Part shown: in pieces, positions 751 to 16,736 of the stretch
How the letters are laid out: each line of letters starts with the position of its first letter
Position numbering within the stretch: position 1 is the stretch's first letter
Assembly: GCA_040005235.1 (NCBI GenBank)
Contig: JBDTZG010000089.1
Coordinates: 1-16,736 of the forward strand
Origin: Acidobacteriota bacterium
Lineage (GTDB): Bacteria > Acidobacteriota > Thermoanaerobaculia > Multivoradales > UBA5704
DNA length: 16,736 bases
Reading direction: 5' to 3'
Position numbers and translations under genes: made by a program
The notes under the pieces: model-generated
What the model was told of the DNA's origin: nothing
Databases searched by the model: none
Seen by the model: the letters and a program-made list of their open reading frames with translations, nothing else

Positions 751-1164
751 ATGACGATAGAGCTACCCGAAGCCGTCGAAGAGAGCCTGCGAGAACTTGC
801 CGCCAGGCAGAGCCGAGATATCCCCTTTCTCGTGAAGGAAGCCGTTCGTGATTACGTTGAGGCCGCCCGGATCACCGACCTGACCAGCGCAGAGGTTGCC
901 GAGGCTCAGCTCGCCCTGCTCGGCGACCTCAAGGGAATTTCGGAGAGGAAGGACGGCAGTGACCTCGAGCGGCTGGCCGTCGAGCGGGAACCGAACTCTG
1001 GCGGCGCCGCAATTCTGAGGAGAGTCGAGGCCCTGAACGAACGGTTTGGGGGAGGCTTCGCTTTTGAGCCTGCGCGCCTCGATTTCAAGCCGGCGGAGCC
1101 TTTCGCACGAAAAAAGCAAGCCAAGAATAGCCCTTGGAAATCCTTGACGTCACCGCTTCCCTAG
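751..1164 (+). CDS. CopG/ribbon-helix-helix antitoxin-like protein with C-terminal extension
   Basis: The N-terminus MTIELPEAVEESLRELAARQSRDIPFLVKEAVRDYVE fits the RHH strand-helix-helix pattern. TAGAAT (739-744) lies 6 nt before the ATG, suggesting a leaderless start. No toxin gene follows. Confidence 0.65.
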   Translation: MTIELPEAVEESLRELAARQSRDIPFLVKEAVRDYVEAARITDLTSAEVAEAQLALLGDLKGISERKDGSDLERLAVEREPNSGGAAILRRVEALNERFGGGFAFEPARLDFKPAEPFARKKQAKNSPWKSLTSPLP

Positions 1165-1219: not shown

Positions 1220-1783
1220 CTACTGTAACGCCCATTCATTGATCCTCCAGCCATCATCAAAAAGAATGAACTCAGCCCTTCCGACGCCATTTCTTGGAGC
1301 ATTAGCCAAGCCCAACACTTCTCCAAATCCCGTAAACTCTTCCGTCCACGAAAACGTGGCGACCCGAGTCTCACCCACGGATGCAATGCCTGTAACTCCA
1401 GAAATCTTGAATCTAGAAACAATCACTTCGTACCCACCTATAGGGGAATCCTGCGCCAGCGCCGCACCTGAGCTTGTAAGAGAAAGGCTCAACTTCATAA
1501 AGGTCATAGAGCTAGAGATCCTACTTTTCTCGGCCGTCAACGACTCAACCTTTACAAGCCCCAACGCTCTCGCGCGAGCCAGGCCTGGGACGGTACCAAG
1601 AAAGACCGCGGGGGCGGCATCCTCAGAATTAACATCTCGCTCGTAATGGGTGAAGTATCTTTCCCTTCTTGGATTCTGATCAAGGGCTTGCTGAATTATC
1701 ACACTGGCCTGATCTCGAGACAGTCCTTTTCCACACCCCAACAGAAGGAAAGCTGTGATGGTCACCAGGCAAAGGTTCTTCAT
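1220..1783 (-). CDS. hypothetical lipoprotein
   Basis: 187 aa with signal peptide MKNLCLVTITAFLLLG-C (lipobox LLGC). GAGAGGGGG lies upstream. The C-terminal 'AEFILFDDGWRI' is typical of NTF2-like/DUF4878-type folds. Visibly more AT-rich than the flanks. Confidence 0.75.
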   Translation of the reverse strand: MKNLCLVTITAFLLLGCGKGLSRDQASVIIQQALDQNPRRERYFTHYERDVNSEDAAPAVFLGTVPGLARARALGLVKVESLTAEKSRISSSMTFMKLSLSLTSSGAALAQDSPIGGYEVIVSRFKISGVTGIASVGETRVATFSWTEEFTGFGEVLGLANAPRNGVGRAEFILFDDGWRINEWALQ

Positions 1784-1921
1784 GAGGATACCCCCTCTCT
1801 AAAGAGATAAATATCGGCGATGATACCCGATAAAGTGGTCGCCGAACTATTGCGCGACTTTGGTCAGCCGCCAATTGGATCAGCATTGGAGTTTTCACCC
1901 CAACGAAAAACGCCTCCCCCC

Positions 1922-1951
1922 TTGACACCGCCCCCACCCCAAGCGTAGCGT
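1922..1951 (+). promoter_or_regulatory. sigma70-like promoter upstream of 21-bp array 1
   Basis: Consensus TTGACA (1922-1927), 18 nt, TAGCGT (1946-1951), pointing into the array and the gene at 2500. Confidence 0.5.
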
Positions 1952-2017
1952 TTCGTCCGTCATGTCCCCGTTCCGTCTCTCCGCGATGCGGGGGGCTCCG
2001 GGGGAGTCGCTGGCGCT

Positions 2018-2366
2018 TTCCGTGATTCGATGGGTGTTGTCCGTCGCTTCGCGCAAACCGCTCGCCCATTCCTCCAGCCTGTCCGCCTTTTTCTGGAAGC
2101 CCTCTGCGGCTTCGCGGACGCCGTGCGCGATACGGCGGACCGTTTCCGCGGACACGCAATTCAAATCCGCGAATCGGTGGACGGCTTTCCTGAATCAGCG
2201 GACGGCGTTCGCCGATCGCTGGAAGCCTTCCACCGGTTGCCGGACGCTGTTCAACTCTTCCTGGAAGCTCTCCGACGTTCGCCGGATGCCTTTCGACAAC
2301 CGGCGGATGCCTTCCGCCGATCGCTGGAAGGCGTCCGTGGATCGTCGCGGGCCTTCCACGGATCGA
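2018..2366. repeat. tandem array of 16 complete plus 1 partial degenerate, imperfectly palindromic 21-bp units (array 1)
   Basis: Units start at 2018+21k with no indels, e.g. 2081 gtccgcctttttctggaagcc, 2165 atccgcgaatcggtggacggc, 2207 gttcgccgatcgctggaagcc, 2270 ctccgacgttcgccggatgcc, 2312 ttccgccgatcgctggaaggc. T at position 2 in 15/16 units, C at position 4 in 15/16, GGA at positions 15-17 in 11/16. An exact 16-mer cgccgatcgctggaag occurs at 2210 and 2315. Confidence 0.9.
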
Positions 2367-2499
2367 TTTTTCTTCCTGCCGATCGCCCCTCGGCCACCGC
2401 CGACGCCCACGGATGATCCCGCTTCCCCTGTCCGCAACTCGCCCCGTGTCACCGCTCGGCGCGTGGCGCGTCGAGCCTCATTCAAAAGGAGATACGACC

Positions 2500-2895
2500 G
2501 TGTCCTATAGCAACTTTGCCTCGTCCCTTCTCTCCTGCGGCGACCTGCTCGCGGGTTTGCAACAGAACCGAGAGGAGCTTCCCTTCCTCGCCGACGCGAC
2601 GGATCGCCTGGCCGCGAGCGTCACCGAAATGCGGGATCTGGAATCGCGCAAACAGCAGCTCCAGTCCGAGCTGGCGATGGCGACCCATCGCCGTCAAGAG
2701 CTCGAAGTGGCGAGCGTCGACGAACACCGCCGGCTCGTTCGCATTCTGCAGGGGCATTTCACCCTTTACTCCGACCGCCTGCGGGAGTTCGGGCTGCGTC
2801 CGCGGACGAAGTCGGCGCGCAAATCCGCCACGCCCGCGCCGACCCCGCCTAAACCGGCGCCGATGAGCCCGGCAGTTGCCGAGGCCGAGGCGTAA
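2500..2895 (+). CDS. small alpha-helical/coiled-coil hypothetical protein (131 aa) with 'LREFGLRP' motif and basic, Pro/Ala-rich tail
   Basis: AGGAG (2487-2491) precedes GTG at 2500, in frame with ORF 2413..2895. Amphipathic helices are followed by FGLRPRTKSARKS and TPAPTPPKPAP. Confidence 0.8.
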   Translation: MSYSNFASSLLSCGDLLAGLQQNREELPFLADATDRLAASVTEMRDLESRKQQLQSELAMATHRRQELEVASVDEHRRLVRILQGHFTLYSDRLREFGLRPRTKSARKSATPAPTPPKPAPMSPAVAEAEA

Positions 2896-2915
2896 GGGGA
2901 ACTACGTTTAGGGAT

Positions 2916-2946
2916 ATAGGGGCGGCAGCGCGGCGGCCGCCCCTAT
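2916..2946. terminator. hairpin between convergent genes, putative bidirectional terminator
   Basis: ATAGGGGCGGC (2916-2926) pairs with GCCGCCCCTAT (2936-2946) as an 11-bp stem, followed by GTTTCT on the + strand. Confidence 0.55.
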
Positions 2947-5372
2947 GTTTCTGAACCGCTTGGAGGCAATCCCGGAACGGCATCCCACCTCACCGGCACC
3001 GCTCGGCGGCGATAGCCCCAGAGGCCGTCGAGGCGCTCGGTTCCTGTGGTTTTTTCGAGCCCCTCGGCGACCATGCGGAAGGCTTCGACCACTCCCGGGA
3101 CGACCAGGATGTGGCCGTTGTCGTCGCGCGGCATCTGCCAGCGGAAATCTTGCAGCGACCCCAGCTCCAGCATCGCTTCGCGCAGCTCGACGTACAGCGC
3201 GCCGAGCCGGGCGGTGAGTGCCGCGAGGCCGCAGGTGGCGAAGAACGAATAGGGCTCGATCCGGTCGATCGCAGAGAGAAGCTCTTGCTCGCCCTCGCAG
3301 CGGAAGACCTGTGCGGAAAGATCTTCCCGGTCGGTCCGCGCGGTGGTCACGATCGCTCCAGGGCGGACGTCCACGAAGCCGCCGGTCGCGAGGTGAAAGT
3401 CGCGGAAATCCGCGAGCGTTCCGCCGTTTCCCCTCGCGTGGCTCTTTTCGATGTGGCCGGCGATCCGATCGGTGCCGTCGAACAGGATTTCAAACGGCGC
3501 AACGAAGAATCCCGTGCGCACGAACGTGACTCCGTCCCTTTCGAAGACGATCGGCGAGCCGAGCGAGGGGATCGCCCAGACGGCCTCCAGCGCGCGGCGG
3601 AAGATTCGGCTCTGCGCCTGGTTCTTCTTGGGAAACAGCCCGCCATGGCGCCCGGGGTTCAAGACCGCGAGATCCTCTTCCGTGTCCGCGCCGACGAGGA
3701 TCTGCATCTCGCGGGCGAGGTCGGGCAACGGCCAATGGGCGAGATCCTCGAAGGTAAGCGGCTTGGACCGTTCGAGCAGGAAGCGCTCCGGATCGAAGCG
3801 GTCGAGATCGACGTAGGGGTCGATCGCGTCGATGTCCACCGTGCGCAACCGATGGAGCAAGATCAGCAGCGACAGGGCGTGCAGCTCTCCCTGGTGCTTG
3901 GCCGAGCCGAGATCTTGGAGCGCCATCGGTTCGAGGCCCGAAACCTGCGCCGCGAGCAGCGGCGGCTGATTCAGCAGGTCGAACACCTGGCGCGAGTTGT
4001 CGGTCTCGGTGTAATAGCAGACGTTGTTCTCGGAAGCGGGAAACCAGGGGGCGTTGCCGTCGTCGCCCAGCACTCCCACCGAGGCGAGGACTAGGGCCAG
4101 CTCGGAGGCACTCGCCACCCGCATCGTCCGATAGAGCGCGTCGGCGTTGGCGACGCTGAAGAAGCCGTTTTCGCCGCTCCGGATCGAATAGGCCGGACGC
4201 AGCGGCTCTCCCGCTTCGAAGCGCGCGCGTTCGGCAGGGGGATTTTCGAGCGGGACGGTGAGCGGCGGCGCCACGCGCACCATGTGGCGCACGGGTTTGC
4301 CGTCCGAACCGATTCTTTGGGCTCCTGGGAAGATCTCCTCCGCGGCATCGTGGATCAGGTGAGACGGCCGGGCGTGGAGCGGAATCGGCTCGCGCAGGCG
4401 GACCTCGTCGATGCCGATCGCGGCGGCGGTGATCAGGATCTTCAAGCCGAGCTGGCCGTACTCGTGGGCCAGCTCCTCGGCGAAGCGCTGCTTGTCGACC
4501 AGGAATTCGTCTTTTGCGCTGTGGGCGAAGCCGAGGCGGATGCTCCGCCGTTTGCCGCTTTCCGCCGAGCTCTCGTCGTACATCCCGCCGACCGCCGTGG
4601 TGTGGGCGATCAACACCTCGTCGGCCAAGCCGCGGACCTCGGCGAGGTCATCGCGAAAGGACCGGACGAACGCCTCCTGCAGTTCCTCCCCCGCGTCGGC
4701 GGACGACTCGTCGAGGTGGCTAACCACCTGCCGCAGATGGTCCTGATGGTAGGCGATCAGGCTCGGTATCGGGATGCCCAAGGTGACCGAACGGAAGTGC
4801 CCCAGGGGCTGACCCTCGAAATGCTTTTCGAGGTAGCCGCGAAGAAAAGTCGCCACCGGCCGCGCCGCGCCGATTGCTTCGAGCAGCGTCGCGATCGGTT
4901 TTTGGCCGCCGCCGGCCGCCAGCTTTTCGATGAACGAATGGACGAAGGCGCGGCGCTCGTCGATCGCCACGTCTTGGATCGCGCCGAGACCCGGCAGCAC
5001 GTTCAGCCGGAACCGCTCGAAGGCGACGAACACGCCGCTCGCGGTGAGATACCCGGCTCCGACCTTCCTTGGATGAAGCGCTTCGCCGTGACGCGTCTCG
5101 ACGTAGCGGAACAGGCGCCGGGTGAAGGCCCGGATGTCGTCCCGGCCCAGGCCCGTCGCCAGCAGGATCGGCACGTCGTCCGCTCCGGGGGTGGCGACCG
5201 TCATCATCTCTTCGTACATCGAGAGCATTTGGAGCAAAGCCGTGCCGCCCACCGCCCCGGTACCGCCGATGATCGCGTGAAGATCCCGCCACCGTTGCCC
5301 CGAACGCGCAGCCTGGGCCAGGCGCGGGCCAAGCCGCTGCTTCTTGTAGCTTCGAGTCATAGAGGAGGGCAA
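2943..5372 (-). CDS. large uncharacterised cytoplasmic protein with N-terminal Rossmann-like (GxxGxxG) motif, putative NAD(P)-binding enzyme
   Basis: 809-aa ORF with globular composition. 'HAIIGGTGAVGG' follows a beta-strand near the N-terminus. Start is TTG 5372 or ATG 5360, only 24 nt downstream of the anti-sigma stop. Confidence 0.8.
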   Translation of the reverse strand: MPSSMTRSYKKQRLGPRLAQAARSGQRWRDLHAIIGGTGAVGGTALLQMLSMYEEMMTVATPGADDVPILLATGLGRDDIRAFTRRLFRYVETRHGEALHPRKVGAGYLTASGVFVAFERFRLNVLPGLGAIQDVAIDERRAFVHSFIEKLAAGGGQKPIATLLEAIGAARPVATFLRGYLEKHFEGQPLGHFRSVTLGIPIPSLIAYHQDHLRQVVSHLDESSADAGEELQEAFVRSFRDDLAEVRGLADEVLIAHTTAVGGMYDESSAESGKRRSIRLGFAHSAKDEFLVDKQRFAEELAHEYGQLGLKILITAAAIGIDEVRLREPIPLHARPSHLIHDAAEEIFPGAQRIGSDGKPVRHMVRVAPPLTVPLENPPAERARFEAGEPLRPAYSIRSGENGFFSVANADALYRTMRVASASELALVLASVGVLGDDGNAPWFPASENNVCYYTETDNSRQVFDLLNQPPLLAAQVSGLEPMALQDLGSAKHQGELHALSLLILLHRLRTVDIDAIDPYVDLDRFDPERFLLERSKPLTFEDLAHWPLPDLAREMQILVGADTEEDLAVLNPGRHGGLFPKKNQAQSRIFRRALEAVWAIPSLGSPIVFERDGVTFVRTGFFVAPFEILFDGTDRIAGHIEKSHARGNGGTLADFRDFHLATGGFVDVRPGAIVTTARTDREDLSAQVFRCEGEQELLSAIDRIEPYSFFATCGLAALTARLGALYVELREAMLELGSLQDFRWQMPRDDNGHILVVPGVVEAFRMVAEGLEKTTGTERLDGLWGYRRRAVPVRWDAVPGLPPSGSET

Positions 5373-5396: not shown

Positions 5397-6194
5397 TCAA
5401 GGCGTCAGCCGAAACTTGAGCGGCGGAGAGCCCGCGAGCCGCTTTCCCGAGGCGTCCTTTGCCTCGACCGACCAGGCGTAGACCACCGCAGTCTGCAGCT
5501 TCGTTACCGCCGCCGCGGGGAGGGTAAGCGGCGAGGCCTTCGCCTCGCCGCTCCAGATCTCTACGCCGAGCGGATCGACGATCCGCGCGCGGTAGGAGGC
5601 GGCCCCCGCGACCGCTTCCCATTCGAGCGCGGAGGGCGCCTTGGGCTGCTCCCCTTCCGGGCCGCGCAGTAGGACGGCCGAGCCGCGGTGGATCTCGGCT
5701 CCCTGCGGCGGAGGGGGAAGCGCCGGCAGGTCGCGCTGGCGCAGCTCGATCGCCAAGCCGATTCCCAGCGCGAGCAGCGCCGCCAGGGCGAGACCCCATC
5801 CCGCAAAGGATCGGCCCGGCCGGCGCGCCGGCAGGCTCTGCGGCACGACGACCGGCTCGATCCTCTGCGCCGTACGGCCGACCGGAAACGCCACGACGTT
5901 ACTGCGCACGGGAGGCGCCTGCTTGCCTTGAGCCTCTTCGATCCGCCCGACGACGAAGGCCAAATCCTCGTCCGAGACGTCGCCGGCATCGAAGGGGAGA
6001 TCCCACCGGCCGGCCAGATCGCGCTCCGCCGCGCAGGCCGGGCAGGACGCGGCGTGGGCTTCGATGCGCTGCCGTTGCGCCGCCGGCAGCTTCACCCACT
6101 CGGCTTCGAGGAACAGCTCGGGCGCCGGGCACCCTTCCTTGAACGCTCCGCACAGGTGGTCGGCGAACGTTTCTTCCCGAGGGTCACGGCTCAT
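5397..6194 (-). CDS. zinc-finger (zf-HC2/ZAS) transmembrane anti-sigma factor-like protein
   Basis: HxxxCxxC motif (HAASCPAC) preceded by CP; one TM helix (WGLALAALLALGIGLAI); C-terminal beta-rich domain (LEWEAVAGAASYRARI...YAWSVEA). ATGA overlap with the sigma gene stop. Confidence 0.85.
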   Translation of the reverse strand: MSRDPREETFADHLCGAFKEGCPAPELFLEAEWVKLPAAQRQRIEAHAASCPACAAERDLAGRWDLPFDAGDVSDEDLAFVVGRIEEAQGKQAPPVRSNVVAFPVGRTAQRIEPVVVPQSLPARRPGRSFAGWGLALAALLALGIGLAIELRQRDLPALPPPPQGAEIHRGSAVLLRGPEGEQPKAPSALEWEAVAGAASYRARIVDPLGVEIWSGEAKASPLTLPAAAVTKLQTAVVYAWSVEAKDASGKRLAGSPPLKFRLTP

Positions 6195-6790
6195 GACGCG
6201 CTCCTTCCGGCGTGCCCCGCCTCGCGGCGGGCGAAACCCCCTTTGAGCTTGCGCAGGGCGCTCACGATATAGGCCTTGGCACCGGATTTATTGGTCAGGC
6301 CGAGCACGGCGCCGATCCGGGGGAGGGTCAAGCCGTGTATGTAATGAAGGATCAAAACCCGCGACTCCAGCGGCTCGAGGTCGTTCGTCACCGCCTCGCG
6401 CAGCCGGGCGTGAATCTCAGCGGCTTCGAGGTCGTCCGAGATCGCGGGCAGCTCGTCCGCCACCTCGGGCGCGTTTTCCTCGTCGAGCGACTGGGTCTTC
6501 CGGCGCGACTGGTACTCGGCGCGGTTGAGCGCGACGCTCCGGGTCACCTGATAGAGCCAGGTCGAAAAGCGGCTGTCGCCGCGGAACGAGTCGAGCCGCG
6601 AATGGATGCGCAGGAACACGTCCTGCGCGATGTCCGCCGCCTCTTCGCGATCCCCCGCGATCCGCAGGCACCAGGCGGCGACCTTCGGGCGGTAGCGCCG
6701 GTAGAGCTCGCCGAAGCAGGCGTCGGCGAGACCCGGCTCGCGCCGCGCTCGGGTGATCAGCTCCTCATCGCTCGCCTGGCCGAAGCTCAA
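6191..6790 (-). CDS. ECF (sigma-70 group 4) RNA polymerase sigma factor
   Basis: Region 2 motif 'AADIAQDVFLRIHSRLDSFRGDSRFSTWLYQVTRS' and region 4 HTH 'LHYIHGLTLPRIGAVLG'. Start placed at TTG 6790 because GGAG lies upstream; the ORF-track extension to 6940 is low-complexity. Confidence 0.93.
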   Translation of the reverse strand: MSFGQASDEELITRARREPGLADACFGELYRRYRPKVAAWCLRIAGDREEAADIAQDVFLRIHSRLDSFRGDSRFSTWLYQVTRSVALNRAEYQSRRKTQSLDEENAPEVADELPAISDDLEAAEIHARLREAVTNDLEPLESRVLILHYIHGLTLPRIGAVLGLTNKSGAKAYIVSALRKLKGGFARREAGHAGRSAS

Positions 6791-7221
6791 GCTTGGTCTC
6801 CGCGACGGCTGACCGGTTCGTTGGAGGGAAGGGGCATCGGCGTGATCGGATCGACAGTAGCGGGATCTCCGCCGGGGACGACCCGGCCGCCCCTGAAGCC
6901 TACTCGAAGAACGCGGCGCGGAGGGAGATAGGGGGAGCATAGGTCCTAGGACAGCCCGGCGCCCTCAGCGGAACAGGATTCTTGCGGCCGTCCGGCGTCG
7001 AGGTGGAAACCGCAGAAATCAGGTCAAAAAAGGCACCCTTTTTGCCCGGACCTAGCGAAATGTCGACCGCCAAAGCGGCAATAGAAGGATCCTGAAACTT
7101 TCTGAAGCAATGGGGTCCAGTTCTGGGGCGCCGGCAGCACTATCGCTATTGAGGATCCCGTACGTCTTTACGATCGGGGCGTGCACTTGTCGCCCACTTC
7201 CGATCCGCTTTTGCACTTTTC

Positions 7222-15922: not shown

Positions 15923-16375
15923 TCAACGCAGCGCCCGCCCCACCACCCGGTCGAGCGCCACGGCGAAGGACTGCCGATCCTTCGGGCCATAGGGGCGCGG
16001 CCCGCCGCCCACCATCCCGGCGCTCCGCAGCTCGGTCATCAGGTCGCGCCCGGCCAGCTTTTCGCCCACGTTGTCTTCGGTGTACTCGTGGCCGCGCGGA
16101 TCGAGGACGAAAACCCCTTTGTCGACCAGCCGCGCAGCGAGCGGAATATCCGCCGTCACCGCGACGTCTCCCGCCTCGGCATGGTCCGCGATGTATTGAT
16201 CCGCCACGTCAAGTCCGCCCGCCACCCGGACCGCCGAGACGTACGGATGATCCCAAGGGGCGGACAGCGGCTGATTGGCGACCAGCAGCGTCTCGACCTT
16301 CAGGCGTCGCGCGAGGCGAAACACCACCTCCTTGACGTCGCGCGGCGCGGCGTCGGCATCGATCCAGAGCTTCAA
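15923..16375 (-). CDS. yaiI: YaiI/YqxD family protein (DUF188, PIN-like fold)
   Basis: GGGAGG precedes TTG 16375. Motifs 'WIDADAAP', 'LVAN', 'DVADQYI', 'GDVAVTADIPLA', 'LDPRG..YT..NV...L..RD.M..LR..G...GGP..Y...DR..FA..LDR'. Confidence 0.93.
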   Translation of the reverse strand: MKLWIDADAAPRDVKEVVFRLARRLKVETLLVANQPLSAPWDHPYVSAVRVAGGLDVADQYIADHAEAGDVAVTADIPLAARLVDKGVFVLDPRGHEYTEDNVGEKLAGRDLMTELRSAGMVGGGPRPYGPKDRQSFAVALDRVVGRALR

Positions 16376-16519
16376 GGGGGAACCTCCCAGTAGCGGTCTT
16401 GGTGGAGCTCGGACACGGCAGCTCCCCGGACGGGAGCATTCTCGCATCTCGCGATGACCTCACGCCCGGCAAACGGACTGAACCCTACGATCCGTACTCA
16501 TTCGCGCTTCTCGAAAGTT

Positions 16520-16687
16520 GTGCGCGAAGTCCCACGACCGGTTCGCACCATGCCGGAAGCGGTGGGTGGCATCCCAGGACCGGTTCGCAACATCCCCGAA
16601 GTGCTGGTCGGCGTCACGGCACCGCTTCGCGACATCCCCGAAGTGCTGGGCGGCATCCCGGCACCGCTTCGCAACGTACCCGTGTCA
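16520..16687. repeat. tandem array of 8 degenerate palindromic 21-bp units arranged as alternating A/B 42-bp dimers (array 2)
   Basis: Units at 16520+21k: gtgcgcgaagtcccacgaccg, gttcgcaccatgccggaagcg, gtgggtggcatcccaggaccg, gttcgcaacatccccgaagtg, ctggtcggcgtcacggcaccg, cttcgcgacatccccgaagtg, ctgggcggcatcccggcaccg, cttcgcaacgtacccgtgtca. 16583-16624 matches 16625-16666 at 37/42. Confidence 0.9.
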
Positions 16688-16736
16688 ACGATCATCCAAA
16701 TTTCCCCCCTCCCGATCACTTAAAAATCCCCCCCTC

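Follow-up and report, generated by a model that had tools for sequence, protein, structure and literature searches.

Promoter, tandem 21-bp array and small helical protein gene form a recurrent module in a Thermoanaerobaculia genome rich in non-coding 20/21-bp arrays

Results

Layout of the locus

The window, by which the whole stretch of 16,736 nucleotides that was analysed is meant, carries at positions 1923-2946 a single copy of a lineage-specific monocistronic module. In this module a promoter-like element is followed by a structured leader of ~100 nt, an array of 21-bp units, the gene of a small helical protein and a hairpin. The features are as follows.

1923..1952, plus strand: promoter-like element (TTGACA at 1923-1928, an 18-nt spacer, TAGCGT at 1947-1952), the left edge of the module
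1988..2086, plus strand: conserved leader hairpin of 99 nt and 36 base pairs (RNAalifold on 7 homologues)
2090..2362, no strand assigned: array core, non-coding, 13 units x 21 bp, imperfectly palindromic, consensus TCGCCGGACGCCTTCCGCGGA
2363..2485, plus strand: spacer from the array to the ribosome-binding site, without repeat structure
2486..2491, plus strand: Shine-Dalgarno sequence AAGGAG, 8 nt before the start codon
2500..2895, plus strand: gene of a 131-aa protein (GTG at 2500 to TAA at 2895) of an uncharacterised helical family
2916..2946, plus strand: GC-rich hairpin with an 11-bp stem (2916-2926 with 2936-2946) and a 9-nt loop, then GTTTCT

The original prediction had described this locus as a self-contained and undescribed cassette. 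It was found that homology among the module copies starts at window 1914-1921 in five of six loci (at 1987 in the sixth) and ends at ~2861-2889, except in two syntenic loci where it runs on into a neighbouring gene that they share. Promoter, array and gene are found together repeatedly as a discrete module, in keeping with the predicted cassette. The predicted TTGACA-N18-TAGCGT promoter is present as an element, and CTTGAC with TAGCGT or TAACGT is retained in 5/5 aligned homologues, further upstream of which the sequence is unalignable. A simple sigma-70 scan of the locus gave 0 promoters and missed this element because TAGCGT agrees with TATAAT at only 3/6 positions. The 131-aa gene is followed by the expected hairpin and by a convergent ORF. 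A simple terminator scan of 1700-3100 called no terminator-like site, the hairpin at 2916-2946 being passed over because of its short T run, and an Rfam search of 1800-3000 returned nothing at gathering score; the hairpin region gave a weak terminator-like match to BjrC68 (E 0.045, under the gathering score). This hairpin is probably a terminator common to the 131-aa gene and the convergent 809-codon ORF, which ends at 2943. As for the novelty of the cassette, there was no match to it in Pfam, NCBIfam, PADLOC, PHROG, PDB or Rfam, and among the papers listed on tandem or palindromic intergenic repeats in Thermoanaerobaculia, Acidobacteria and bacteria at large there was no report of the array class or of the protein family.

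Period, units and dyad of the array

A strict 21-bp period runs across window 1985-2383. The match at lag 21 was 0.513 over this region, lags 42 and 63 gave 0.50 and 0.47, and all other lags were at or below 0.34; the highest match at any lag from 5 to 63 averaged 0.327 over 2000 shuffles and never exceeded 0.379. Tandem Repeats Finder detected just 1.9 copies in the array (2171-2210) because the units have diverged. The 13 units at 2090-2362 are identical to the consensus at 12-17 of 21 positions, with one exception (8/21), and the five at 1985-2089 at 9-11 of 21. These five degenerate "units" are the conserved leader hairpin and not array units. Eighteen positions are in phase with no indel, where 16 or more tandem units had been claimed, and 13 of them are good units. 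Between homologues the array has indels of 21 and 63 bp, i.e. of unit size.

In the palindromic register 64.2% of the cells pair, compared with 31.9-47.5% when the register is slid by 1-3 columns, so the units are imperfect palindromes as predicted. Compensatory covariation within the units, which had been proposed as a check, was equal to that of the shuffled control (64.2% of cells pairing observed, 63.7% shuffled). The dyad belongs to the consensus alone and is not accompanied by compensatory change, which leaves both unit-hairpin RNAs and a type III toxin-antitoxin reading unsupported. The spacer at 2363-2485 diverges at about the synonymous-site rate, with 20/119 positions differing from the closest homologue. 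Against four homologues the 3' part of the array showed 32/270, 55/270, 80/225 and 95/225 differences, and third positions of the gene 19/131, 36/129, 48/129 and 42/130.

The first ~100 nt of the array form a conserved plus-strand RNA hairpin that was overlooked in the original prediction. It was observed that 98.8% of 250 cells at 1988-2086 are paired, with counts of 199 for Watson-Crick, 48 for G.T and 1 for A.C. Twelve pairs vary, on one side only and always by way of G.U, and changes on both sides number 0. The consensus energy is -68.35 kcal/mol on the plus strand as against -51.9 on the minus strand.

The array is non-coding. Substitutions in the array counted by codon phase against the four homologues were 17/12/9, 21/21/27, 39/35/30 and 40/41/36, and 22/21/17 against a paralogous array. 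In the 131-aa gene the same four homologues gave 19/4/6, 36/12/10, 48/29/16 and 42/30/25. Period-3 power in unit variation over 64 arrays was 0.105 (null 0.099), and period 3 was the top component in 4/64. Protein-coding evolution in one frame, another check that had been set out beforehand, was thus not found, there being no codon-phase bias in the homologue comparisons.

A genome-wide class of arrays

The source genome (6.2 Mb, a soil acidobacterium of the Thermoanaerobaculia) was scanned for arrays at lags 9-69. The scan revealed 65 arrays at lag 21 and 23 at lag 20, together with 2 at lag 22 and 0 at lag 19; other lags gave at most 3, apart from 40-42, 60 and 63, which represent two or three units. 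Arrays total 34.8 kb of the 6.2 Mb. The array at 1985-2383 belongs to this genome-wide non-coding class, in which unit length is fixed at 21 or 20 bp. It is known that 20-21 bp make up two turns of B-DNA. The unit sequences fall into 13 families and 30 singleton types, and are arranged head-to-tail with a median of ~18 units per array. The idea that unit length rather than sequence is held constant is therefore borne out twice, by the 21- and 63-bp indels between homologues and by the genome-wide arrays, whose many unrelated units share a period of 21 or 20. Consensus dyads scored 6.33/10 as compared to 5.67 when shuffled, with a score of at least 7 in 30/64 arrays (47%) and in 18% of shuffles. 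The dominant 21/20-bp periods and the dyad register correspond to the helical-turn spacing and dyad symmetry of a phased protein-binding array. Dam phasing through one GATC per unit was also considered and rejected, as GATC is present in only 11/96 consensus units and at 8.1 per kb in arrays versus 10.9 in the genome.

Arrays are mostly intergenic with neighbours of many types, and many of them directly follow a stop codon or separate two convergent genes. Among the arrays having two close neighbours and no overlapping predicted gene, 15/43 lie between convergent genes according to crude gene calls. Of 163 array flanks, only 20 have a matching counterpart beside another array, in each case on one side only. 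In pattern searches, isolated unit matches outside arrays were not above our own estimate of chance. High-identity arrays break the assembly at contig ends, and for the largest period-20 family (13 arrays) no linked gene was seen in the fragmented assembly.

The 131-aa protein and its family

The predicted gene is a real one, as judged from AAGGAG at 2486-2491, from the excess of substitutions at third codon positions and from the start position, which is kept as ATG in two homologues. An AAGGAG-like motif precedes 24/27 family ORFs in the source genome. In the protein three helices (residues 6-22, 28-87 and 92-97) precede a disordered tail that is basic and rich in proline; its AlphaFold2 model has a mean pLDDT of 86 and contains no strand. 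The neighbouring protein had been proposed to be dimeric, and the predicted homodimer did score 0.62 versus 0.00 for the best control, a mark that was reached by 20/30 proteins solved as pairs and by 1/23 solved as single chains. The homodimer runs agreed in at least 94% of contacts, with a partner pLDDT of at least 86. The family protein is thus predicted to be an antiparallel helical dimer.

The family is large and uncharacterised and has expanded within the same bacterial family, with 27 copies in the source genome and 1383 cluster representatives. Searches of Pfam, NCBIfam, PADLOC and PHROGs with the protein gave weak coiled-coil noise only, a PDB fold search gave 0 matches at E <= 0.001, and the nearest ESM Atlas clusters were in 30/30 cases unnamed Acidobacteriota proteins. 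No Pfam ribbon-helix-helix or HTH domain was found in 25 family members. No downstream gene is common to the 25 paralogues, bar three weakly similar ORFs.

Association of arrays with the protein family

In the source genome an array lies within 700 bp upstream of 10/25 family genes and downstream of 0/25; the other 15/25 are without an array. The array is not private to the cassette, a point overlooked in the original prediction, since only 10/88 arrays (12/96 with a looser array set) adjoin a family gene in this way. The family is the commonest neighbour of arrays, with 12 arrays in the looser set, which suggests that the protein may bind arrays. Two other groups of neighbours recur, namely HTH-TPR regulators (8 arrays, of which 7 lie downstream of the gene) and a ~170-aa family (4 arrays); the remaining small ORFs directed away from arrays and preceded by a ribosome-binding site are mutually unrelated. 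It was also observed that in three of the multi-copy array families (16, 6 and 3 members) exactly one array each is upstream of a gene of the protein family. The distance from the array end to the start codon is 20-23 nt in some copies, so that the array must either be transcribed or itself contain the promoter.

In other genomes an array was found upstream in 18/39 rows (14 of period 21, 4 of period 20) and downstream in 2/39; two duplicated loci and a second hit in one locus are counted among these rows. Arrays co-occur with the protein family across the sampled genomes (seven genomes, six of them as 400-kb samples). Samples of family-bearing genomes had 4, 5 and 12 arrays, while two genomes of a genus lacking the family and one of another bacterial family gave weak lag-21 hits or none, and the repeats surrounding the weak hits all have periods divisible by 3. 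The family is carried by 0/10 genomes of that one genus. It should be noted here that the genus without family and arrays is a single clade, so that this co-occurrence amounts to one event.

Discussion

The present study shows that an array of 21-bp units between a promoter-like element and a small protein gene is one member of a genome-wide class. The explanation that we favour, as plausible although short of probable, is that the array is a helically phased DNA platform to which a dimer of the protein binds, thereby autoregulating its own gene. The protein would be a helical antiparallel dimer carrying one basic tail at either end, and could bind the phased, dyad-symmetric units in their DNA form, with neighbouring dimers lined up along one face of the helix. 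As the array lies between the gene's own promoter and its start codon, such binding could make the gene self-limiting by roadblock or occlusion. Related arrays elsewhere on the chromosome would offer the paralogues additional sites to bind in trans, and arrays would grow and shrink by whole units.

Some observations speak against a platform. No DNA-binding fold is recognisable in the protein, and ~40 different unit sequences would hardly be read by a tail of low complexity. By the crude gene calls, a position between convergent genes is commoner among arrays than is usual for regulatory sites. Moreover 15/25 family genes have no array, and only 10/88 arrays lie within 700 bp upstream of a family gene.

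It could be possible, though it seems to us rather unlikely, that the arrays are neutral or self-propagating intergenic minisatellites of the REP/BIME-cluster or BrickBuilt kind, seeded and expanded by slippage at palindromes, and that the protein is unrelated to them in function, the link being one ancestral promoter-array-gene module that was duplicated. The mostly intergenic position with neighbours of many kinds, the many arrays just beyond stop codons or between convergent genes, the occurrence of one unit type in unrelated flanks (only 20/163 matching) and the breaks at contig ends caused by high-identity arrays would all be in line with this, as would whole-unit changes in copy number and the nearly neutral divergence of the array's 3' part. 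However, a single duplicated module cannot explain unrelated units and both 20- and 21-bp periods upstream of distant paralogues (25-35% identity, other genera), and slippage alone leaves the strict two-turn length across unrelated sequences unexplained. In addition, no arrays were seen in sampled genomes without the protein family, and a comparison of coordinates placed 0/5 strong Y1-transposase genes within 2 kb of an array. A different view takes the array as RNA, a ~540-nt 5' leader whose repeats are bound by protein or fold by themselves and so control translation or stability of the mRNA, or which is cut into unit-length RNAs as in type III toxin-antitoxin systems. The conserved promoter-like element upstream, the array ends 20-23 nt before the start codon in some paralogues, the folding of the whole leader, which is better than that of shuffles (z = -4.2), and the plus-strand-specific G.U support in the hairpin at 1988-2086 (G.T 48 vs A.C 1) are consistent with it. 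From this hairpin it follows that the 5' part acts as plus-strand RNA, which makes an RNA target for the protein conceivable. The array proper behaves otherwise, having no compensatory change and no strand asymmetry in its units (G.T 105 vs A.C 98 on the sense strand of 10 arrays), and the minus strand likewise folds better than shuffles (z = -3.2). Most arrays are also sited where no downstream gene needs a leader, a terminator between array and gene was not found, the protein has no match to ToxN, AbiQ or CptN, and the 21-nt unit is to be set against repeats of ~34-45 nt in type III antitoxins. We regard the RNA reading as distinctly unlikely, and the option of 21-nt hairpin RNAs in the original prediction gains nothing from units that covary like the shuffled control and from an all-helical protein that is not ToxN-like.

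The last option offered there, a coding sequence, would have the array encode a heptad-repeat (coiled-coil) protein on one strand or the other. It is true that 21 bp equal 7 codons, that the plus frame 2030-2416 is open here and in five other translated copies (four homologues and the paralogous array) with its stop overlapping an ATG at 2413, and that the minus frame gives heptads resembling G-F-Q-R-S-A-E and fits the GC content by codon position. Several frames are open because the GC-rich unit contains no stop codons. Codon-phase bias is absent from every comparison, there is no period-3 signal, and the codon-usage score is close to zero (at most 0.022 per codon, versus 0.12 in the neighbouring gene). 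Two homologues lack the ATG at 2030, which has no ribosome-binding site, the minus-frame stops differ in place between the present array and the paralogous array, and upstream of homologous genes the same position is taken by period-20 arrays. Heptad coding, on either strand, was rejected as very improbable.

Beyond the DNA platform at this locus, a bolder proposal would be a hitherto unknown chromosomal system made up of the 20/21-bp arrays and the small helical proteins. In such a system every paralogous dimer would read its own array type and polymerise along it with one dimer per two helical turns, the length of the antiparallel helix pair of 60 residues serving as a ruler. If true, the fixed unit length would be set by protein geometry. 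Dozens of sequence-addressed nucleoprotein filaments could then insulate, silence or organise neighbouring genes, each gene of the family being autoregulated by its own array. We consider this proposal unlikely as it stands. Arrays of short repeats between genes are common across bacteria and for the most part lack an explanation; in the present genome dozens of unrelated sequences keep to a unit length of two helical turns, and the arrays are statistically tied to a large, lineage-expanded and uncharacterised family of small proteins predicted to be dimeric, which provides a concrete candidate partner that is cheap to test. If the protein binds, it would offer a new DNA-binding fold and an explanation of the 21-bp rule; if it does not, the module would still give a clear example of how a minisatellite comes to be caught between promoter and gene.

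Comparison with known systems

The array is not CRISPR, as predicted, since its units abut without spacers and 0/18 scanned ORFs of the window match a Pfam Cas family. Type III toxin-antitoxin systems (ToxIN, AbiQ-antiQ, CptIN), in which a promoter, tandem non-coding repeats and a small protein gene follow one another on a single strand, resemble the module. Their antitoxin repeats are ~34-45 nt long. The present unit is of 21 nt with no terminator found between array and gene, the units lack covariation of the RNA type, and the protein is all-helical and without a ToxN-family match. Such a system is not supported, as neither the protein nor 24 aligned relatives gave a ToxN/AbiQ/CptN-type match in Pfam, NCBIfam or PADLOC.

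ParR-parC (pSK41, R1), omega (pSM19035) and iterons are alike in that a repeat array lies directly upstream of the operon for its own small dimeric binding protein and is a binding platform and an autoregulatory operator at once. The repeat unit of pSK41 is ~20 bp, and plasmid iterons measure 17-22 bp. The available text of one report describes parC as tandem repeats upstream of the operon, continuous in pSK41 (PMC5016525). In contrast to these systems, the present protein has no ribbon-helix-helix or winged-helix domain, its gene is monocistronic with no partner NTPase or Rep gene, the arrays are 2-5 times longer, and tens of them occur on the chromosome as against one per replicon. A partition centromere of ParR type was discarded because 25 members gave no RHH/HTH match in Pfam and no ParM/ParA partner gene is present.

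REP/BIME elements of Proteobacteria are similar in being short, GC-rich, imperfectly palindromic, non-coding intergenic units in many copies with unrelated flanks, often after stop codons, and many REPs occur reiterated in tandem, according to the available text of PMC3733652. They differ in that REPs have one or few genome-wide sequences, whereas here there are 30 singleton types and 13 families, essentially only in long head-to-tail arrays (median ~18 units) with an exact 20- or 21-bp period. As to a Y1 (RAYT) link, 0/5 strong Y1_Tnp matches were within 2 kb of an array and 1 weak match was at 420 bp; REP/BIME with RAYT does not fit the many unit types and the lack of a strong Y1_Tnp match within that distance of arrays. 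BrickBuilt of Porphyromonas gingivalis, a minisatellite within a MITE, is described in the available text as a spacerless tandem 23-nt unit, always intergenic, at ~19 per genome, with promoter activity and a distinct 'leader' beside the array (PMC4596501). Tandem short units without spacers are common to both, as is a leader beside the array at the present locus. As far as that text goes, BrickBuilt forms a single sequence family whose leader and tail subunits are conserved and whose ends are inverted repeats, whereas the present arrays differ in unit sequence. A MITE bearing a minisatellite was rejected as there are no conserved two-sided flanks (20/163 match, on one side only). Compared with BrickBuilt as described there, the present arrays are linked to a specific protein family, a link that is new.

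A discrete module

The source genome comprises 6.2 Mb in 140 contigs, and the window is one complete contig of these (C119). It contains the following features.

1923-1928 and 1947-1952: promoter-like element, TTGACA and TAGCGT separated by an 18-nt gap, read from sequence
1985-2383: zone of strict 21-bp period, read from sequence
1988-2086 (+): leader hairpin of 36 pairs, kept in seven homologues
2486-2491: AAGGAG, read from sequence
2500-2895 (+): 131-aa ORF with GTG start, read from sequence
2916-2946: GC-rich hairpin with an 11-bp stem, immediately preceding the end of a convergent 809-codon ORF

Neither the promoter-like element nor the hairpin at 2916-2946 was called by simple promoter and terminator scans. 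Together, promoter-like element, leader, array, gene and hairpin form a discrete module, as was seen in blastn comparisons of the window with six loci. In the two that are syntenic, alignment begins at about 1914-1921 and continues through the downstream gene. In four loci lying in different genomic contexts, homology does not extend beyond the promoter-like element on the left and the gene end on the right. It is unsplit in two of them (1921-2882 and 1987-2872) and split in the other two (1917-2163 plus 2433-2889; 1919-2174 plus 2443-2861), the 3' half of the array there being too diverged for alignment. Relative to the closest genome, 964-1913 is extra DNA (blastn), so the left boundary of the module coincides exactly with an insertion or deletion. 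This segment has a GC content of 0.53-0.54 as compared to about 0.64, and carries an ORF (1220-1783, minus strand) with a lipoprotein-like N-terminus; in the closest relative, which lacks it, the RHH-like gene (window 751-1164) extends to the promoter-like element. Elsewhere on the minus strand (5397-6940), an ECF-type sigma factor gene (Sigma70_r2/r4, 6191-6940) followed by one for a zf-HC2 anti-sigma-like protein (5397-6194) is an ordinary pair.

The array and its genome-wide class

The strict 21-bp period of the original prediction is upheld: lag-21 identity of the array is 0.513, and in 2000 shuffles the best lag within 5-63 never exceeded 0.379. The consensus TCGCCGGACGCCTTCCGCGGA is matched at 12-17 of 21 positions by the 13 units of 2090-2362, with a single exception at 8 of 21; the five positions upstream of these units show 9-11 of 21 matches. 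It is a near-palindrome, and the imperfect palindromic units proposed earlier were recovered, as 64.2% of cells pair in the palindromic register versus 32-47% in slid registers. Indels among homologous loci are exactly 21 and 63 bp. The array is non-coding, with a fixed unit length and dyad symmetry at the level of the consensus.

It belongs to a genome-wide class of arrays with units of 20 or 21 bp. A scan of 189-bp segments, with a self-match threshold of 55% and all lags of 9-69, gave 65 arrays at lag 21, 23 at lag 20, two at lag 22 and none at lag 19; remaining lags gave at most three arrays each, save 40-42, 60 and 63, which represent two or three units. No locus is shared between the arrays of period 20 and those of period 21. 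Median array length is 376 bp (about 18 units), and array DNA totals 34.8 kb. Consensus units have a dyad score of 6.33 of 10 pairs versus 5.67 in shuffles, and 30 of 64 arrays (47%) reach at least 7 pairs versus 18% of shuffles. Unit sequences fall into 13 families and 30 singletons, the biggest families having 16 arrays of period 21 and 13 of period 20 (GGATAGCCGCTATCC core). Among the 23 period-20 loci (e.g. C83:100270-100822 and C82:130616-131091), the core shared by these 13 is a near-perfect palindrome, and in this assembly none of the 13 adjoins a small-protein family gene.

Crude gene prediction of our own places most arrays between genes; where an array has close neighbours on both sides and overlaps no predicted gene (43 arrays), the neighbours are convergent in 15, tandem in 20 and divergent in 8 cases. 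Flanks resembling another array's flank number 20 of 163, on one side only in every case. None of the five strong Y1-transposase genes is within 2 kb of an array. A weak Y1-transposase-like match (C35:3587-3805) lies 420 bp from an array (C35:2765-3167) and a second (C69:25325-25570) downstream of a family gene (C69:24266-24652) at a distance of about 700 bp. Such proximity could be due to chance. A second array of the window (16530-16682, in a zone of about 16487-16714 up to the contig end) consists of 3.6 copies of a 42-bp repeat in which two 21-bp subunits alternate, and a divergent DUF188/YaiI-family gene (15923-16447, minus strand) has this array upstream. Several further arrays are located at contig ends, and so arrays probably break the assembly.

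The array is not a protein gene

Several open frames cross the array on both strands, in the window and in homologues, as a GC-rich unit without stop codons allows. Heptad coding was one reading in the original prediction. Substitutions were compared by codon position with four homologous loci (protein identity 91, 84, 74 and 65%). In the gene they fall mostly on third positions (19/4/6, 36/12/10, 48/29/16 and 42/30/25), against a flat distribution in the array (17/12/9, 21/21/27, 39/35/30 and 40/41/36). A paralogous array elsewhere in the genome, with 78% identity over 276 bp, gives 22/21/17, and its minus-frame stop is at a site different from the TGA of the window. Across the class, period 3 holds 0.105 of the power of between-unit variation versus 0.099 in shuffles, and is the top component in only 4 of 64 arrays. 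Array as protein gene was rejected on the substitution pattern, on codon usage (0.022 to -0.077 per codon in array frames versus 0.12 in the neighbouring gene) and on the loss of ATG 2030 in two homologues. Heptad coding is thus a highly improbable explanation.

Array units and leader hairpin as RNA

Nothing indicates that the units form hairpins as RNA, and the compensatory covariation looked for within them did not appear. The share of paired cells is 64.2% versus 63.7% in column-shuffled controls, 251 of 500 shuffles reach the observed share, and the covariation score is identical to the shuffled score. On the sense strand of the ten arrays preceding family genes in the source genome, G.T and A.C mismatches are equal (105 versus 98), and double changes that keep a pair are few (56 versus 450 broken cells). 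The region 1958-2499 folds better than its shuffles on both strands (z = -4.2 and -3.2), as palindromic DNA must.

The leader hairpin behaves otherwise. In seven homologues 98.8% of 250 cells are paired (Watson-Crick 199, G.T 48, A.C 1); all 12 variable pairs changed on one side through G.U, with no two-sided changes. Its folding energy is -68.35 kcal/mol versus -51.9 on the opposite strand, which loses part of the helix. Its pairing and strand preference suggest that a plus-strand transcript starts close to the conserved promoter-like element; given the relatedness of the seven sequences and the choice of the structure on the plus strand, the support is moderate and falls short of proof. The hairpin overlaps the best-conserved stretch (1960-2110), which has 7 differences from the closest homologue in 151 positions; the remainder of the array has 32 in 270. 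In some copies 20-23 nt separate the array end from the start codon, so that the array there is transcribed or carries the promoter. That a transcribed array acts at the RNA level seems improbable in the light of the unit comparisons.

A family of small helical proteins

An iterated profile search found 27 family ORFs in the source genome. A Shine-Dalgarno motif and start codon stand at the expected place in 24, and one further ORF is an N-terminally shortened copy that also has both; these are the 25 genes counted below. Many, judged by eye, have a GC-rich hairpin and T run directly 3', and no downstream gene is common to them. With a single-sequence search, 23 of 24 further genomes from the bacterial family of the source genome were found to have such proteins, as against none of 16 from eleven other families of the order. 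A profile search gave 4-48 matches each in 51 of 61 genomes and in 10 of 11 genera, the ten genomes of one genus having none. HMMER against 1.84 billion cluster representatives returned 1383 matches at E <= 0.001 and 668 at E <= 1e-10; almost all of the 150 best of the 1383 are 105-170 aa long. No fitting family was found in Pfam, NCBIfam, PADLOC or PHROG and no PDB chain at E <= 0.001, and the 30 nearest ESM Atlas clusters are all unnamed Acidobacteriota proteins.

The AlphaFold2 model (mean pLDDT 86, pTM 0.58) has helices at 6-22, 28-87 and 92-97, followed by a disordered tail that is basic and rich in proline. In the predicted antiparallel pair of two copies, residue 54 touches residue 54, and helix 1 packs on helix 3 and on the end of helix 2 of the partner chain. 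The dimer score is 0.62 as compared to 0.00 for the best control; contact agreement between runs is at least 94% and partner pLDDT at least 86. This mark is attained by 20 of 30 proteins solved as same-chain pairs and by 1 of 23 single-chain proteins, counts that hold only roughly since our own alignment was the input. The modelling supports a dimer, in agreement with the dimeric neighbour originally predicted, and the protein represents a large new family of small, probably dimeric, helical proteins.

Association of arrays with the protein family

The association is strong, directional and partial. In the source genome an array (threshold 0.55, within 700 bp of the gene) lies upstream of 10 of 25 family genes and downstream of none; random placement would give about half a gene by our own arithmetic. 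One of the ten has period 20. With a looser threshold, arrays precede about 13-14 of the 24 genes having enough upstream sequence. A period-21 array had been expected upstream of homologues, and this held in part: among 39 rows from other genomes, which contain two loci fetched twice and one secondary match, 18 have an upstream array (14 of period 21, 4 of period 20), and a downstream array occurs in 2.

Co-occurrence was sampled in six other genomes, with 20 regions of 20 kb taken per genome; this makes seven genomes in all, and the genus without both features is one clade. Three family-bearing genomes show 4, 5 and 12 arrays at lags 20-21, with at most one match at other lags of 15-30. Two genomes of the family-free genus have 1 and 2 weak lag-21 matches in low-complexity GC-rich sequence, and all their matches (8 and 17) have lags that are multiples of 3. 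The sampled regions of one genome of another bacterial family gave none at lags 19-22.

The counts speak against a simple one-to-one picture of array and protein: of the 88 arrays, only 10 are found in the 700 bp upstream of a family gene. There are also other recurrent neighbours. HTH(XRE)-TPR regulator genes adjoin 8 arrays, with the array downstream of the gene in 7 of 8, and a family of about 170 aa recurs beside 4. The arrays beside HTH(XRE)-TPR genes (e.g. C18:145130-146974, C137:2533-4029 and C8:182351-184294) are mostly members of the largest array family.

Possible function and comparison with known systems

We tentatively favour the reading that dimers of the protein bind the phased units of the array as DNA. 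Through the array in front of it, each family gene would limit its own expression, much as in the autoregulation of ParR-parC or iteron-Rep systems, and arrays elsewhere could be additional targets of the dimer. The upstream position of the arrays and the predicted dimer are consistent with this, as are three multi-copy array families that each have exactly one member preceding a family gene; the units of arrays before distant paralogues are unrelated in sequence. Somewhat less probably, the arrays are minisatellites resembling REP/BIME or BrickBuilt elements, and their link to the gene is historical.

On the DNA-binding reading, the module would most resemble a tandem operator or centromere bound by a small protein of its own, a likeness based on association. 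It did not pass the defining tests of a type III toxin-antitoxin pair, a CRISPR array, a ParR-type partition locus, REP-RAYT or a BrickBuilt-type MITE. In the literature searched, no description of the array class or of the protein family was found. This analysis adds the candidate protein partner, the subclass with period 20, the limits of the module and its leader hairpin, and we rate intergenic palindromic repeat arrays, or a tandem operator with its cognate protein, as the nearest known kind.
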